NCBI GenBank assembly: GCA_951406725.2
Contig: OX597830.1
Coordinates: forward strand, 28,830,001-28,894,000
Origin: Octopus vulgaris
Lineage: Eukaryota
Reading direction: 5' to 3'
Length of the DNA stretch: 64,000 nt
Shown in pieces: positions 5,888-59,440 of this stretch. The notes below the pieces were generated by a model. The model was not told the DNA's origin, searched no databases, and saw nothing but the letters and a program-made list of their open reading frames with translations. Positions within the stretch are counted from its first letter, which is position 1. The number at the start of each line of letters is the position of its first letter. A program made the translations under genes and the position numbers.

Positions 5888-6134
5888 AGCTATCTATCTG
5901 TCTGTCTGTCTGTCTCTCTCTTTATATATATATATATATATACATACATTTATATATACCCGCATATGTATGCATGTATGCATGTGTATATTATATATAT
6001 GTATGTATGCATATGTATGTATGTATGTATATAAATAAATATTTATATATATATATATATACATATATATACGCACACATAGTTGTGTATATATAGTTGT
6101 GTTCATAAATATGTATGTATAGGTGTGTTCATAC

Positions 6135-6229
<95 letters not shown>

Positions 6230-7128
6230 CGTATGTATGAACACACCTATACATACACATTTATGAACACAACTATATATATATATACACATCTATGTGT
6301 GCGTATATATATATATATATATATATTTATAAATAAGAATAGATAGATAGATAGATAGATAGACAGATAGAGAGAGAGAGAGAGAGAGAGAGCGAGAGCG
6401 AGAGAAAGAAGGGAAAGAAAAATAACGAAGAAATTGTCTTATTGAGAGACGTGGAATACATAATTGCAAAAAGCATACAAAGAGATCTAAATCTAGATAG
6501 AGAAATGTATAGAGCGATAGAAACCTATAAACGGAGAAAGAAATATATATAGATAGACATATAGTGTGTTTGCAAAAATGAAAGATAGCAGAAAAATATG
6601 TAAGTAAACTATAGAGAGAGTGGGAGGCCAAATAGCAATAACACAATACATTGATTAAGAAACATTGATTTAGAGTATTAGTGTAAGGTAAGAATTAGTG
6701 TCAACTGAGAGAGAGAAGAGAAACACAGAAACAGACGTGAGAGGGAGAGTAGGAAATGAGAATGGCGTGAGTGGGAGAGGTTACAAGGTTGAAGGGCGAG
6801 GAGGAGGTACGGGAGGAGGAGGAGAAGGTGGAGATATATCAGTTGAAGTACGAGGAGAGGAGGAGAAGCGGAATTTGTTTTTGTTTGTTTTTAATTTTTG
6901 CATGTATGAAAATGTGCAGGAGAGGGTTTAGAGAGAGTGAAGAGTATGGTATGAGGGTTTCTGGAGGATAGGCTTTAAAAAAACCCAAAAAAACAATCTG
7001 AGACGGGGATCCCCCAGATACCGCACTGAATAATATATTTATGCATGTATACACAAATATATACATATATAGTTATATAGATAGATAGATTAATTGATAG
7101 ACAGAAAAAATAGATAGATGGAAACAGG

Positions 7129-8124: not shown

Positions 8125-8357
8125 ATAACATAAGGGACTAAAGCCATCTGAATATGGCTAGGGACAGGGCAGGGTGGTGGGGGTGTTACTGTTGCATTTA
8201 GCCCCAGGCGAACATCGACGTCACCAGAAAGAGGGCACCGTGATGGTGTCGAGCCTTTCTGGTGACGTCGATGTTCGCCTGGGGCTAAATGCAACAGTAA
8301 CACCCCCACCACCCCGCCCTGTCCCTAGCCATATTCAGATGGCTTTTAGTCCTTATG

Positions 8358-8361
<4 letters not shown>
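8125..8361. repeat. fold-back palindrome, ~107-bp arms
   Basis: 8125-8231 is the reverse complement of 8255-8361 with about three differences; the ORF track gives near-identical peptides on both strands; right end runs into (TA)n. Confidence 0.95.
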
Positions 8362-12363: not shown

Positions 12364-13484
12364 ATGAATGTATATGTGTATGCGTGTGTCTATATGTGTA
12401 TGTGTGTGTGTATAAACTCTTGCATTTTTGTTACTTATATAACAGATATGAGGTCATCGGGCTTAAGTGTTACATCTGGCAAACTTATATATTATTCAAT
12501 AAAGATTTTATTGTAAAATTATTTACCTTAGTTTGTATTCTATTTCGTTGCATATATTTCAGAATACGTCTATGAACATCTGAGATATACATATATGTGT
12601 GCATGTTCAATACATACAAAGACTTGTTTTTTTCTTGGACAATTCTTTTCCTTCTCTCCGACTTTTATATAGATATATCACTTTCTTAAATACACGATTT
12701 TGTTTATATATACATACCTATACAATATATAGATTTATACATGTAAGTATGTGTATATGTATGTGTTTGTGTGTTTCTGTTGTACGGCAGTTTTGTTCCT
12801 TACAATTTTACTTGTTTGGTCAAGTACCCCAAATCAAACTGCCTTTCCATTTACTATACCATACCATGTTTGCCCTGCATGCAACTGTCTTACTGCCACT
12901 AAGTTTCTGCTGAACAATAGCTACCTTTTGAAATCATTTATTGTCACGTACGGAATCCTTTACCGGAATGACTATAAGTAAATTTAAGACAAGTTATTAG
13001 CCACAGATACACACGTTCAAACATCCAGAACAGCAAATTTTTAATAGTTTATACAAGTAGGATTTTTTTTGTTTTAAAGTGTCTAGCCGGCGGGTGCTTA
13101 AAATACAGTGGAGCATATGACAGCTCGTAACGCCCTCGCTACATAGTTCTTAGATTACTGGCGGAAAGTAGACTAAGTTTCTTGGCTGAGTTCCACTTTC
13201 TACATTTCCAGTTTATTTATATTTCCTGAGGTGCTTTATATGATATATATTTAGCACTAGATCAGCCTTGATATTCATCCGTGATTATGCTATATTTGTG
13301 TTTATCTAGACCCACATGTTCAACTGAGTTCTAATAGTGTGAGATGACAGGATCGCATCTGTAAATATTTCTTCCTCACCATACAATGAAGAATTGCAGT
13401 TCTATATTTAAGAGATTAGGAAATATGTGCATTATTTACATTATTTATATTTAACGAATATTTGTCCTCATCTTGTTTGTTTTT

Positions 13485-13530
13485 AACACAACGTTTCGGC
13501 TGATATTCCCTCCAGCCTTCTTCAGGTGTC
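13485..13530 (-). ncRNA. minimal type-I hammerhead ribozyme motif (family H1)
   Basis: Minus strand reads gacac-CUGAAGA-aggcug..cagcc-GAAA-cg-UU-guguu: intact core, stem I, stem II and palindromic ACGU stem III. Confidence 0.75.
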
Positions 13531-13578
13531 TTGGGGATATTTTGTCTCTCTCTCTCTAAGGTATAATTTTTGCTGTTC

Positions 13579-13817
<239 letters not shown>

Positions 13818-13866
13818 TCGAAAACTATACCTTAGGAATGAGAACCCATGTTCGAAATTTCCCCAA

Positions 13867-13913
13867 GACACCTGAAGAAGGCTTTGAGGGTACATTAGCC
13901 GAAACGTTGTGTT
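13867..13913 (+). ncRNA. minimal type-I hammerhead ribozyme motif (family H1)
   Basis: gacac-CUGAAGA-aggcu..agcc-GAAA-cg-UU-guguu; homologous to the 13485-13530 copy in opposite orientation. Confidence 0.75.
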
Positions 13914-14801
13914 AACAACAAATTTGTACAGAACAGTAAATTGTTACAGAACGGCAAATGGGGTCGTAGATTTTGCCCTTTTACGCTAAGAATCCTTCAC
14001 TCAATATATCCTGGAGAGCTTATCATACTACATTCCGTCTTTTCGTATGCAAATATATAAAATTTATCTCCTTGCCCTCTGCTCTACAAGTTCTTCTGGC
14101 CAAGAAGTTCTGCTGTTCTGTACAAAAATCCCCTACCGATATTTTTGTTATTAAGTTTTTTTCTGTAACTGCGATGAAGCTAAAATTTCCACTTGTTTGT
14201 TTTATATTTAAGAAGGAATACTTCCATGCAACTAATATATGGAGGGACCACATTTGAAATCGTGTACTATGTGCTACTGATATTATCGTTGTCACTAGTG
14301 TTGCTGTCTTGTAAATGATTTATATTAAAGTGACTAGCAATTGTACTTGTACGGGGGTGGATGTGCTGAAAGGTTCCTTGCTTTAAGAGTATGGCAAAAG
14401 ATCTGGTTGAGGGCCCAACCTTCCGAGTTATTTTCTTGCATTTAGAAAAACTGGAGGACTGATGCAAAGTGTGTGAATCTGAGAGAGGAATATATTGAAT
14501 AAAATCATAATTAACTGATCCACCTGTATTTTCTTTTACCAGGATCTTTTCAGCGCACCCTTCTATTGTCCATTTACTTCTGCCTCTTTCACACAGCTCT
14601 ATGGTGCGTTTCAATTTTGTGTTGTTTGCTTGCAACAATTCTAGTGTTTGATTTTGTAGCATACTTTTGTGTGGTAGCCATTTGTAAATTTGTCATGCAT
14701 TTAAATACAATCGTAAAATTATGTGAAACAAAATTCTTTTCCTTCTCTAACCTCAGCTATCGAGGGCAATCCTTCTTTGTATCTAGTCTTTATTCTTCTT
14801 T

Positions 14802-15862: not shown

Positions 15863-15999
15863 TTATTTATCGACCTTTATGCAATGAAAAGTAAAATTAA
15901 CCACATCAGGTTTTAGAGTGACTACGTGCAGTAGAGAAACGAGACACTGCAATGAATTCTATCGGACGCTTTAAGGACTCTGTGAGAATAATAATAAAC

Positions 16000-16265
16000 A
16001 CGCCGTTGCAATGGGACTCCGCCACTTGGTACAATCTCGGGCTTGTGTTTCAAACGATCCCCGCTCAATTCCAGTGGCATTCAATGTTGCTTTGAGTTGG
16101 TCTTTGTATCTTCTAACAAAACAGTCTTTCCCTGAAGTGAATACACTGAATAAAACTTGAGACGGGAACCTAGATTCATTCTTCCTACATGGCCTCACTA
16201 TCGCAGACGGTGTTTCGTCAACAGAGATTCGATACTTTGACTGCTGGCACTTTCCACGACTTTGT
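16000..16265 (-). mobile_element. RTE-clade LINE 3' fragment, degraded
   Basis: Minus-strand translation across a stop and frameshift gives SIESLLTKHRLR*.GHVGRM and RRYKDQLKATLNATGIERGSFETQARDCTKWRS, matching the RTE C-terminal pattern LRWxGHVxRM..KRYKDxLK..WExxAxDRxxWR. Confidence 0.75.
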
Positions 16266-19040: not shown

Positions 19041-19199
19041 CCGGAGTAAGCACATAAATGTCAAACAAGGTGGAAAATTGAGTACTCGAATACCAGTGGT
19101 AGAGTAATATGCTTTATTTAAAGCTAGCAAAAAATGTCCGATGAACGGCAACAGGAAACTCAGAGTAACAGGTTTTGTTGAATTTTCTGCTGCTTTAAA

Positions 19200-19203
<4 letters not shown>
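19041..19203 (+). mobile_element. (TA)n-embedded Penelope-like repeat with a degenerate hammerhead (family H2)
   Basis: Homologous to 39041-39221; ugu-CCGAUGA-acggcaacag-GAAA-cucagag-UA-aca at 19135-19170; (TA)n on both sides. Confidence 0.65.
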
Positions 19204-23335: not shown

Positions 23336-23800
23336 TTATTATTATTATTGCTTTTGCATAGCTTCTAACGCTTGAGATGCACTACACTGTCAGCTGTTCA
23401 CTACCAGTCAACTAAGGTAACATCTCTTAATTTTCCAAAATATTCGAGCGGTTCCAAGCAGTGGTGTTTTCTGCAAGTGCTCCACACTTATTGCAACCCC
23501 TATTTGTTCCACGTACTCCTCGAGATTTTTGCTCACTGTTCCCATGGCTCCGACAATTATTGGTACTACTGCTACCTTTTTCATCGACCACAACTGCTTA
23601 ACCTCCCAAGCTAACCTGTCATATCTCTCGAATTTTCTTTCTTCCTTATCGCATGCCTTGTTGTCAGCTGGGCATGCTACATCTATGATCCAGCATAGTT
23701 TCTTTTCTTTCTGAATTAAGACTATGTCCAACTTCCTAGTCTTTATCACATGGTCGCACTGAATCACAAAATCCCCTAGGATATTTGCATTTCTATTTTC
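23336..23800 (-). mobile_element. 5'-truncated R4/Dong-clade non-LTR retrotransposon (restriction-like endonuclease domain plus 3' UTR)
   Basis: ILGDFVIQCDHVIKTRKLDIVLIQKEKKLCWIIDVACPADN..KEERKFERY..LLGTARI fits the RLE pattern RxPDxV..IIDVxxP..KxxKY..LLGTARI; (AAT)n tail at ~23336-23348. Confidence 0.85.
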
Positions 23801-23841
23801 GACGAAGCAAAAAGAAATTACTCCTGAGTAATACTCTTTCC

Positions 23842-26909: not shown

Positions 26910-26967
<58 letters not shown>

Positions 26968-27128
26968 GACTGGCTTCTTTCAGTTTCCGTCTACCAAATC
27001 CACTCACAAGGCATTGGTCGGCCCGGGGCTATAGCAGAAGACACTTGTCCAAGATGCCACGCAGTGGGACTGAACCCTGAACCATGTGGTTGGTTAGCAA
27101 GCTACTTACCACACAGCCACTTCTGCGT
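26686..27128 (-). mobile_element. SINE family A
   Basis: Full-length reverse copy with a (ttttactc)n tail. Confidence 0.92.
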
Positions 27129-32520: not shown

Positions 32521-33302
32521 GAAGGCGAGCTGGCAGAAACGTTTGCACACCGGGCAAAATCCTTAGCGGTATTTCGTCTGTCTTTACGTTCTGAGTTCAA
32601 ATTCCACCGAGGTCGACTTTGCCTTTCATCCTTCGGAGTCGATTAAATAAGTACCAGTTACGCACTGGGGTCGATATAATCGACTTAATCCGTTTGTCTG
32701 TCCTTGTTTGTACCCTCTGTATATAGCCCCTTGTGGGTAGTAAAGAAATAGGTATTTCGTTTGCCGTTACGTTCTGAGTTCAAATTCCGCCGAGGTCGAC
32801 TTTACCTTTCATCCTTTCGGGGTCGATAAATTAAGTACCAGTTACGCACTGGGGTCGATATAATCGACTTAATCCGTTTGTCGGTCCTTGTTTGTCCTCT
32901 CTGTATTTGGCCCCTTGTGGGTAGTAAAGAAATAAGTATTTCGTCTATCTTTACGTTCTGAGTTCCAATTCCGCCGAGGTCGACTTTACCTTTCATCCGT
33001 TCGGGGTCGATAAATTAAGTACCAGTTACGCACTGGGGTCGATATAATCGACTTAATCCGTTTGTCTGTCCTTGTTTGTCCTCTCTGTGTTTGGCCCCTT
33101 GTGGGTAGTAAAGAAATAAGTATTTCTTCTATCTTTACGTTCTGAGTTCCAATTCCGCCGAGGTCGACTTTACCTTTCATCTGTTCGGGGTCGATAAATT
33201 AAGAGCCAGTTACGCACTGGGGGTCGATGTAATCGACTTAATCTCTTTGTGTATCATTGTTTGTCTCCTATATGTTTAACCCTTTGTGGGCAATAAAGAA
33301 AT
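32521..33302 (+). mobile_element. SINE family B tandem array: one head plus four ~184-bp units
   Basis: Units restart at gtatttc near 32569, 32752, 32936 and 33120; ORF-track peptides repeat at a 184-bp offset. Confidence 0.92.
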
Positions 33303-34164
33303 AAAGAAATAAAAGATAAAGTCAACCTCGGAGAAATTTCGACTCGTAATGTAAAATAGGAAGAAATGGCATGAAAAATTATGTCCCGTTCTGCCAATAA
33401 TAAAAAAAAAACAATTGTTTCTGATTTAGGTACAAAGCCAGCAATTTTGAGATAAAGAGCAGTGACTGAATTCATCAATCCTAGTACATGACTGGCTTTT
33501 GAATTATAGAGCTGGGAGAGATGAAATGCACGGTTTGGTTTGACGAGATTTAGAAGGCAAAACAAGAGGACCGTCAACATATGCCGAAAATTTGGTACTG
33601 CATAGAAAGTTCTCTCAAATGTATAATTGACAGACTTGAACCGCCAAGAGTAGCCCAATTGTCTAAGGTGCAACAGGCAATTCTCGTAATTTTATCCTAG
33701 CAGCATGGTGTTATCAAGAATATATTAGCTTCTTAACACAAGAGCTTTGGAGATAAGTAAGAAACCATCAATTACATTGTCTCTTGATATCAAGAACTAA
33801 TGAAGAACGATATATCTACACGAACAACATCATAACGGGGTACAAACGTTGAAAAATATTCGGTGGGTAATTAGATCCAGCTAAATAAGAAGTGTTGCAA
33901 TCATCACGGCTAAACACTTTTAGTGGTTATAAGAGGATTATCATCATAAGGCAGGGGGCCATCAGAGTTGATAGTCAGATAATTGCAAAACAAACCTGAC
34001 AATGTTATCGGAGATTGAAAGTGCATAGTCTTTTATATAGCTATATCCACAATACGAAACATCTTCATTCGTTTCAGGAAAAAAAAATGAACGAATACAT
34101 GGAACTGAGATCAAAGTGCTCGAAGTGTCAAACAAATCTTCCTCAAAATAGCCCTGTCTACTAT

Positions 34165-35525: not shown

Positions 35526-35681
35526 ATAAAATACAGTGTACATTAAAACACATAAAGAATATACTGGTGGGATTCAACACGCTAGAAAGAACAGCTAGGT
35601 TCTATAACCTAGCGGTTGTTTCTAGCGTGTTGAATCTCACGAGTGGATTCCTTATGTGTTTTAATGTACGCTGTATTCTAT
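35526..35681. repeat. fold-back palindrome, ~76-bp arms, 4-nt loop
   Basis: 35526-35601 is the reverse complement of 35606-35681 with about nine mismatches; right end runs into (TA)n. Confidence 0.92.
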
Positions 35682-38364: not shown

Positions 38365-39040
38365 CATATATATACATAAACACACACACACACACACACA
38401 TACCTACACACACATATATATGCATATATACCTACGTACATACATACATATAAATATGTTGAATCATAATTATATGCTAGCCATTGTATCTAGTGTGCAG
38501 AAAAGCACAAGATTTGGAAGATGTATGTTTATACATAAGACATCTATTATGGGTGAATGTATGTTGGTGTATGCGTGCGTGTAAGAGAGAGGGGGGAGAG
38601 GGGGAGAGAGTGTGCGTGTGTGTGCTTTTGAACCTGTGTTCTTGTGTGTGTGTGTGTGTATGGGTATCTATGTGTGCGCTTGTTCGAAATTTATTTCCTT
38701 GATTTATCTTTTTAAATTTTGCAAACCATATCATGTTCCGAAATTTTCACGCGTGCATACACACAAACAGTGACATACATGCAATCACACATGCATACAC
38801 ACACGCACACACATATACACATACATATATATATATATACATCTGTTTATATATATATACACACATCTATCTATATATATATATTCACACACACATATAT
38901 ACATATATACATACATACACCTTTATAGGTACAAATGAATATGTATCTCTCTCCTTTATCTGTCTATGTACATTAATATATACATAAATAAACACAGATA
39001 GATTTATGTGTAGATATATACATATGCATATATATATACA

Positions 39041-39219
39041 CTTTATTTAAAAGCAGCAGAAATATATCAAAAGCTGTTACTCAGAGTTTCACGTTTCCGT
39101 TCGTCAGATAGTTTTTTTTCTAACAAAACCGTCCGACTTTTAAATAAAGCATATTACTCTACCTCTGGTATTCGAGTACTGTTTTATTCCACCTTGTTTC
39201 ACATTTATGTGCTTACTCC

Positions 39220-39291
<72 letters not shown>

Positions 39292-39373
39292 TATACCGGA
39301 GTAAGCACATAAATGTGAAACAAGGTGGAATAAAACAGTACTCGAATACCAGAGGTAGAGTAATATGCTTTAT
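39041..39373. mobile_element. Penelope-like repeat (family H2) with a perfect 78-bp inverted repeat around (TA)n
   Basis: 39144-39221 is the exact reverse complement of 39296-39373; homologous to 19041-19203. Confidence 0.8.
39074..39111 (-). ncRNA. type-I hammerhead ribozyme motif (family H2), core intact
   Basis: Minus strand reads cuau-CUGACGA-acg(gaaa)cgu-GAAA-cucugag-UA-acag: GAAA-tetraloop stem II, quasi-palindromic stem III, GUA cleavage triplet, one mismatch in stem I. Confidence 0.75.
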
Positions 39374-57200: not shown

Positions 57201-57415
57201 ATAGAAAGGTTGTATAATGTCAATCTAACACGAAATGACAGTAGAGGGGTACACCACCGCTGTTTAGCCCTAGGAAGCATCGACGCCTCCTGATGTATAT
57301 AAGGACACAGGAAAAATGTGTCAAAGCCATCAGGAGGCGTCGATGCTTCCTAGGGCTAAACAGCGGTGGTGTACTCTCCTACTGTCACTTTCGTGTTAGA
57401 TTGACAGTATACAAC

Positions 57416-57423
<8 letters not shown>
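57201..57423. repeat. fold-back palindrome, ~95-bp arms
   Basis: 57201-57295 is the reverse complement of 57328-57423 with few differences; loop contains a gacaca/tgtgtc stem; right end runs into (TA)n. Confidence 0.95.
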
Positions 57424-58446: not shown

Positions 58447-59440
58447 TCTTATTTCTTTACTGCCCACAAGGGATTACACACAAGGGGGAGGGGGTCAAAC
58501 AAGGACAGACAAACGGATTAAATCGATTATATCGACCCCAGTGCGTAAATGGTTCTTATTTAATCGACCCCGAAAGGATGAAAGTCGACTTCGGCGGAAT
58601 TTGAACTCAGAACTTAGCGGCAGACGAAATATCACTAAGCATTCCACCCGGCGTGCTAACGTTTCATATTTCTTTATTGCCCACAAGGGGCTAAACACAG
58701 AGGGGACAAACAAGGACAAAGTGATTAAGTCGAATACATCGACCCCAGTGCGTAACCCAAAAGGATGAAGGGCAAAGTCGACCTCGGCGGAATTTGAACA
58801 CAGAACGTAACGGCAGACGAAATACTTATTTCATTACTGCCCACAAGGGGCTAAACACAGAGGGGACAAACAAGGACAGACAAATGGATTAAGTCGGTTA
58901 CATCGACCCCAGAGCGTAATTGGTATACATTTAATCGAACTCGAAAGGATGAAAGGCAAAGTCGACCTTTGCGGCATTTGAACTTAGAACGTAGCGGCAG
59001 ACGAAATATCGCTAAGCATTCCACCCGTCGTGCTAACGTTTCTTATTTCTTTATTGCCCACAAGGGGCTAAACACAGAGGGGACAAGCAAGGACAGACAA
59101 AGGGATTAAGTCGATTACATCGACCCAAATGCGTAACGCGAAAGGATGAAAGGCAAAGTCGACCTCGGCGGAATTTGAACACAGAACGTAACGGCAGACG
59201 AAATACATATTTCTTTACTACCCACAAGTGGCTAAACACAGAGGGGACAAACAACGACAGACAAATGGATTAAGTCGATTACATCGATCCCAGTGCGTAA
59301 TTGGTACTTATTTAATCGACCCCGAAAGGATGAAAGGCAAAGTCCGCCTCGGCGGAATAGGAACTCAGAACGTAACGGCAGACGAACTGCCGCTAAGCAT
59401 TTCCTCCGGCGTGCTAACGTTTCTACCAGCTCGCCGCCTT
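58447..59440 (-). mobile_element. SINE family B tandem array, five units with a dimeric higher-order structure
   Basis: Single complete head at 59440; unit ends (tatttc(a/t)tta) near 58449, 58667, 58827, 59044 and 59208. Confidence 0.9.

Follow-up and report, generated by a model that had tools for sequence, protein, structure and literature searches.

The stretch of DNA that we analysed (the window, 64 kb in length) consists of microsatellite-rich eukaryotic DNA and contains no N letters. At about 39 kb it carries a short insertion with a minus-strand hammerhead ribozyme motif, beside a (TA)n tract across which part of the insertion is mirrored, and at about 19 kb it carries a second insertion of the same family. 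The features of both are:

19041-19203, plus strand: second insertion, head-to-head layout, lying between (TA)n tracts, with a CCGA core and without the outer palindrome
39041-39120, minus strand: 5'-truncated pLTR piece with a type I hammerhead, reaching the family's short 3' terminus at the TA-rich flank
39074-39111, minus strand: hammerhead, with the stem I 5' arm at 39111-39108 (mutated) and the stem I 3' arm at 39077-39074
39107-39101, minus strand: hammerhead core CUGACGA
39100-39091, minus strand: hammerhead stem II, 3 bp, with a GAAA loop
39090-39079, minus strand: hammerhead GAAA and palindromic stem III
39122-39137, plus strand: micro-inversion, an inverted copy of the stem I 5' arm and the start of the core
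39137-39221, plus strand: inverted partner piece, 13 nt of the short terminus followed by a tail of ~72 nt to the long terminus
39222-39295, no strand: (TA)37 tract with one C, the insertion target and likely the fold-back primer and loop
39296-39373, minus strand: right arm, an exact inverted copy of 39144-39221 that meets a degenerate TA-rich flank

The outer structure is as the first-pass annotation described it, i.e., perfect 78-bp arms around a TA tract of about 74 bp, forming a near-total palindrome of about 230 bp: the arms (39144-39221 and 39296-39373) are complementary at 78 of 78 positions, and the 74 nt of (TA)n between them (39222-39295) are interrupted once, by a C at 39286 for which the mirror position, 39231, holds no counterpart. 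The palindrome is oriented tail-to-tail, with the tails inward. On the tract side the mirror ends at 87 bp, at the unmirrored C, and on the other side unique flank resumes after 78 bp. Within the window the palindrome occurs once, and it is absent from the second family copy; a MITE or other terminal-inverted-repeat transposon was discarded on these grounds, a reading that also fails because in other family copies the arm runs on into the hammerhead. A search of the 64 kb with Rfam gave no match at gathering score. Relaxing the threshold to E<=10 between 38500 and 40000 produced 60 matches, all sub-gathering and mostly microRNA hairpins, with no hammerhead among them; being below gathering score and driven by the palindrome, the microRNA-type matches were set aside.

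The conserved letters of the hammerhead core and its NUH site are complete (CUGACGA, GAAA, U16.1 and GUA), placing the predicted cut after 39078 on the minus strand. The core pattern matched twice in the 64-kb window and never in 100 shuffles; since it was derived from the window's two copies, the core likeness of its matches is partly by construction. In folding, stem I carried A-C mismatches at its second and fifth pairs, with pair probabilities of ~0, C3, U4 and G5 were 99% paired with the micro-inversion, and stem III of the monomer had a pair probability of 0.08-0.10. The 60-nt hammerhead region folded no better than shuffles (z -0.82). At 39109, where the 39-kb copy has an A-C mismatch, 92-96% of the family depth holds the letter that completes stem I. 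With stem I broken and the core sequestered by the micro-inversion, the 39-kb hammerhead is predicted not to self-cleave. Thus, of the intact minus-strand hammerhead that had been proposed, the CUGACGA core, the GAAA-capped stem II and the GUA site stand, but the intactness does not.

Internally, the insertion (39041-39221) consists of two pieces placed head-to-head in a (TA)n target, with a tail on one side. The family depth over the pLTR piece (39041-39120) begins in the 39035-39044 bin, and the inverted partner piece contains a bulged hairpin at 39156-39180. Two inner inversions that had been noticed earlier were recovered, the 13-nt one (39041-39053/39137-39149) identical at 13 of 13 positions and the partial inverted ribozyme copy (39103-39118/39122-39137) at 12 of 16. 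The micro-inversion retains the family-majority letters, CCGA included, and in relatives it is an exact copy. Overall, 7 sites are listed at which 39041-39221 departs from the majority letter of the family.

BLAST within the window aligned 19041-19203 to the 39-kb element at 79% identity (E 1e-39). TA runs lie on either side of both insertions, each of which joins a tail-bearing piece head-to-head with a hammerhead-bearing piece. Four of the 24 sequencing runs listed provided contigs placed on 38925-39221 (5613, 5394, 2913 and 574), and 477, 460, 282 and 86 of these, respectively, were at least 99% alike to it. By its sequence the element is a member of a high-copy repeat family, a term we use without a figure, as alignment depth does not equal copy number. 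Loose ends before 39137 and the joint 39054-39137 show that elsewhere in the family hammerhead and arm share one orientation, the arm coming second. Two 3' termini therefore exist in the family, of which the longer lies ~72 nt beyond the shorter and runs into (TA)n. Loose ends past 39218 enter (TA)n in three of the four runs listed. Junction points differ between family copies (15 of 100 joints are listed), the common ones among those listed falling at 39137-39151.

Four 13-15-nt motifs of the family were unmatched in the literature searched, a search that covered articles, and the family may already be catalogued in Repbase or Dfam. Its terminal motif has no match in the PMC8557442 supplement, and the main text of an octopus repeat paper (PMC13282606) mentions neither hammerhead, ribozyme nor Hydra.

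At core position 4, C is held by 74-94% of the family depth, by the 19-kb copy and by the micro-inversion of the 39-kb locus itself; the depth at this position is small (46,000 vs a peak of more than 1 million in run X1), and alignment bias should favour the window's letter. Other CpG sites in the family show decay letters at 8-16%. Judging from these letters, the canonical CUGA of the 39-kb copy is likely the product of CpG decay of a family CCGA. A CCGA core appeared in none of the 137 related matches listed and in none of the 26 listed Hydra rows of the PMC8557442 supplement. The change, U4C, is known from nature; it reduces activity in vitro and yet supports a viroid (PMC3088659).

In metagenome contigs (44 of 64 parts scanned), the core pattern was found at at least 120 loci, with at least 137 full matches; viral contigs gave none, and the exact terminal motif matched neither metagenome nor viral contigs. 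One metagenome locus (L053) combines the hammerhead with a tail, a TA run and an ORF of 714 aa, the latter with the motifs RWK, DKT, YRDD, CxCx5C, a GIY-YIG-type motif and CxxC..E..N..CxH. These are the diagnostics given for the Hydra clade of Penelope-like elements (PLEs) in PMC8557442, i.e., a single ORF with RWK, DKT, a reverse transcriptase core, a CxCX5C linker, a C-terminal GIY-YIG, CxxC and CxH. At least 2522 of 8000 scored proteins were relatives of the L053 protein at E<=1e-30. Pieces of Hydra-type ORFs occurred in 10 of the 120 listed loci, and in 7 of these 10 the ORF ended 147-638 nt upstream of a hammerhead on the same strand. As for the layouts of the 120 listed loci, 18 were head-to-head with a one-sided tail, 5 head-to-head with no tail and none with a tail on both sides, the window's own layout being seen in 2. 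Of the 103 scorable related hammerheads listed, 31 are preceded by a micro-inverted copy of stem I and core sequence. We also observed that the listed loci (L001-L120) comprise several Hydra-type PLE families in metagenome host DNA, among which stem I covaries, and that in L053 the intact-looking ORF is followed by a partial tandem copy.

The hammerhead and target of the window family fit the same clade. Like Hydra-clade PLEs (PMC8557442), it has a type I hammerhead with a 4-bp palindromic stem III around one base and a CUGU/ACAG stem I, a (TA)n target, which 26 of the 27 Hydra families in the supplement share, and head-to-head truncated copies with a tail at one end. Its stem III and family-majority stem I match those of Hydra-2_aMil and Hydra-2_aJap, which have identical stem III and stem I core pairs in File S2 of PMC8557442, whereas position 4 differs. 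It departs from these elements in its majority CCGA rather than CUGA, its 3-bp stem II and the lack of an ORF in our searches; its tail measures ~72 nt, compared with 30-40 bp for PLEs in general (PMC8557442), and the 39-kb locus has in addition the tail-to-tail mirror. Hydra-1_Obim was discarded as a parent, its hammerhead in the PMC8557442 supplement being different. Pfam detected no reverse transcriptase or GIY-YIG domain in 150 of the 272 window frames (mostly the longest), with 3 sub-threshold matches; as it also detected nothing in the L053 protein itself or in three further pieces, it is a weak test for Hydra ORFs. The best tblastn match of the Hydra protein to the window had an E of 0.19. 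An autonomous PLE with this terminus, which the first-pass annotation had proposed to look for, was found neither in the window frames, nor by tblastn, nor in the metagenome and viral contigs.

The sequence comparison thus supports the proposed link to PLEs and allows it to be narrowed to the Hydra clade. An inverted arrangement of truncated copies has been described for PLEs (PMC8557442), and both 39041-39221 and 19041-19203 show it, with an inverted 5'-truncated copy at the 5' end and a tail at one end only. At 39 kb, the pLTR-like inverted architecture therefore applies to the inner part, but not to the outer palindrome, as a tail-to-tail copy was found at 0 of 122 related hammerheads listed. 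From its sequence, 39041-39221 is likely what is left of an old insertion into (TA)n by a Hydra-clade Penelope-like retrotransposon, of which it represents the truncated 3' end.

The hairpin in the tail has possible counterparts among the relatives. Among the 143 related 3' halves listed, 49 carry a motif further downstream, in 15 distinct versions. Of these versions, 11 fold into an inner stem of 4-7 bp that has a bulge of 2 nt; in each of the window's copies the stem measures 4 bp and the bulge 3 nt. In 12 selected relatives pairing reached 97.8%, and at two pairs both partners had changed, the structure and the 12 alignment rows having been chosen by hand. A covariance model of these 12 tails, run on the window, gave the arms an E of 0.66, ranking them behind four TA-rich matches, and missed the 19-kb copy, such that homology between the window's tail hairpin and that of ORF-linked relatives is suggestive only. 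In L053, one such motif (394-420) follows the hammerhead and a second (473-502) lies just upstream of the start of the Hydra ORF.

Two results bear on how the right arm arose. At two sites the arms share a letter that few family copies have, its share of the family depth being no more than 0.7-2.3% at 39181 and 2.4-9.1% at 39186, which implies that one arm was copied from the other. Moreover, the micro-inversion is mismatched at 4 of 16 positions and the arms at 0 of 78 (Fisher p 6e-4; with the 13-nt overlap added, 4 of 29 vs 0 of 78, p 0.005), indicating that the identity of the arms is younger than the insertion. The earlier argument that zero divergence means a recent event consequently holds for the arm duplication alone and not for the insertion, with its 7 majority differences and diverged micro-inversion. 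Our preferred account, to which we give a probability of roughly 0.5, is that an old Hydra-PLE end with its hammerhead came first, and that the right arm was later copied from the tail by DNA fold-back at the TA tract.

According to the fold-back account, and judging from relatives and the literature, a Hydra protein with reverse transcriptase and GIY-YIG domains would have cleaved the (TA)n target and reverse-transcribed the element RNA from two 3' start sites, presumably leaving two short pieces head-to-head, one tailed and one tailless, with a micro-inversion at the joint. Substitutions then accumulated, as the family letters show, breaking stem I and turning CCGA into CUGA, the latter probably by CpG decay. 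Subsequently, breakage or stalling within the TA tract may have allowed a 3' end to anneal to the 9 TA bases nearest the tail, to be extended backwards over 78 bases and to be joined at the far end through a microhomology of ~3 nt. The geometry of the locus is consistent with these last steps: 9 perfect TA bases lie beside each arm, the loop would measure 56 nt, 78 nt are copied, and the right arm meets the degenerate TA flank with ~3 nt of microhomology. Fold-back insertions in yeast are alike in being short inverted copies (10 to >150 bp) primed by inverted microhomology of ~10 bp and joined at the far end through 0-5 bp of microhomology (PMC11724301), although those followed an induced break and the 39-kb case is reconstructed from its letters; long AT repeats are reported to break easily and to fold into hairpins (PMC11797062, PMC12972899). 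Elsewhere in the window, at 6040-6335, low-complexity DNA is mirrored across (TA)n(GATA)n with 98 of 103 matches, and the GATA run is repeated behind the second arm. It resembles the product of template switching, has no relation to the family and provides a precedent for mirroring.

Counter to fold-back, the end of the right arm lies within a few bases of the junctions at 39137-39151, so that a tail piece made by the PLE machinery also fits. The right arm might then derive from another insertion of the family, consisting of the tail alone and entering the same (TA)n in reverse orientation, with gene conversion across the hairpin later making the arms identical. The family is abundant, its target repeat is strand-symmetric, and the arm end (39144) is among its common junctions. 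Against this, a lone tail piece would lack the head-to-head partner that both window insertions have. Conversion would also have had to be complete, given that the shared letters are rare (at most 2.3% and 9.1% of depth), and five other local inverted repeats in the window retain 1-9 mismatches, which argues that arms are not routinely homogenised. We therefore regard this origin as unlikely. That assembly or polishing created the right arm, or made its match perfect, we judge quite improbable. Zero mismatches beside a self-complementary tract that reads alike on both strands would be expected of such an artefact, and PLE inverted structures are known to trouble assemblies (PMC8557442); however, two switches would be needed, since the mirror stops at 87 bp on the tract side and gives way to unique flank after 78 bp on the other, the other inverted repeats of this assembly keep their mismatches, and the window is free of N. 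None of the 24 sequencing runs listed, among which no run is recorded as RNA, contained half of the locus's 14 words, and in the contig alignment of four runs the left flank was without cover and repeats were skipped, making presence or absence of the locus unreadable from cover, while the right-arm junction lay outside that alignment.

A single recent PLE retrotransposition that made the entire nested structure, together with an active hammerhead, appears very improbable. The core nucleotides are all canonical, the family is PLE-like and the arms are identical, as such an event would predict, but the 7 listed majority differences and the diverged micro-inversion speak for age, and at the estimated 4.4% per lineage the chance of 0 differences in 78 bp is ~0.001. 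A broken stem I, a sequestered core and the absence of tail-to-tail copies from the 122 relatives listed weigh in the same direction.

How the family spread is a separate question, and the following is compatible with the fold-back account. Rather than by truncation of an autonomous element, amplification may have proceeded from an ORF-less master, a SINE-like, retrozyme-like derivative of a Hydra PLE, which we consider possible though short of probable. Both window copies begin 12-18 nt before the core, the depth drops sharply 5' of stem I, where loose ends agree at only 0.47-0.49, and the majority U4C is absent from the related matches and Hydra rows referred to above (137 of 137 and 26 of 26). 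However, junction points vary by copy, as independent truncations would, the drop in depth stems partly from the 39-kb copy's own mismatches and micro-inversion, ORF-bearing related families are also often truncated at the same place, and the window copies contain no tandem units. More speculatively, this would be a Hydra-dependent, ORF-less family of very high copy, with a U4C master, mobilised via the covarying bulged tail hairpin.

Other ribozyme-bearing elements offer partial parallels. Minimal PLE hammerheads (PMC4209133) are likewise of type I, with a palindromic helix III suited to cleavage as a dimer, and are mostly solo and tied to truncated PLEs, with opposite-strand pairs reported; metazoan ones cleave weakly in vitro, as dimers. 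The window's differ in their short stem II with A-U first and, at 39 kb, in the broken stem I. The Poseidon element PAc of Anolis (PMC11167929) resembles the window family in that two reverse-transcription start sites define an optional tail and both strands of AT-rich DNA are cut, and its insertion in vitro does not require hammerhead cleavage; it belongs to another clade, such that the mechanism in the window is drawn by analogy only. Non-LTR retrozymes (PMC7229834; bioRxiv 10.64898/2026.07.22.740005) are similarly short and non-coding, have a type I hammerhead and are proposed PLE derivatives, but consist of tandem hammerhead units, whereas the window copies are solo and internally inverted. 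With no tandem array at either copy and one core per insertion, a non-LTR retrozyme was discarded.

Several further repeats were observed in the window. At 13476-13922, a second hammerhead-like family with a CUGAAGA core and a long stem II forms a head-to-head inverted pair around (AAT)n, its arms having 84 matches and 9 mismatches; we take it to be Penelope/Poseidon-like. On the minus strand, a frame of ~140 aa beside a long (TTA)n tract (23411-23830) has no Pfam match and presumably resembles the C-terminal restriction-like endonuclease of R4/Dong-type LINEs, and a short frame at 15922-16264, also without a Pfam match, resembles, we assume, the 3' end of an RTE-type LINE ORF. A dispersed repeat of ~144 bp (26967-27110 and 12 other places, 13 BLAST pieces), usually adjoining TA runs, is presumably an octopus SINE end. 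A 184-bp, SINE-like repeat is found in tandem arrays and solo copies (32569-33304, 58450-59386 and dispersed; 21 BLAST pieces). Hairpin-like inverted duplications at 8125-8361 (105/106 matches), 35526-35681 (67/76) and 57201-57423 (90/95) each end in (TA)n on the right side only and are possibly the ends of other PLE families; a 12-nt motif from each is absent from the PMC8557442 supplement.

Taken by itself, the 39-kb locus is likely ordinary for the most part and of little weight, i.e., a decayed Hydra-type PLE end of a known kind to which a local mirror copy of the tail was probably added later. What it teaches is that identical arms date the duplication and not the insertion, and that a canonical CUGA may itself be a product of CpG decay. 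The bulged hairpin in Hydra-type tails is a candidate signal for binding of the reverse transcriptase or for initiation, and a high-copy family with a U4C majority bears on the question of what PLE hammerheads are for. Were the family indeed Hydra-dependent, spread from a U4C master and mobilised via the tail hairpin, it would provide a natural test of the idea that PLEs can spread with ribozyme cleavage dispensed with or tuned down, and the signal by which Hydra reverse transcriptases recognise their RNA would be identified.
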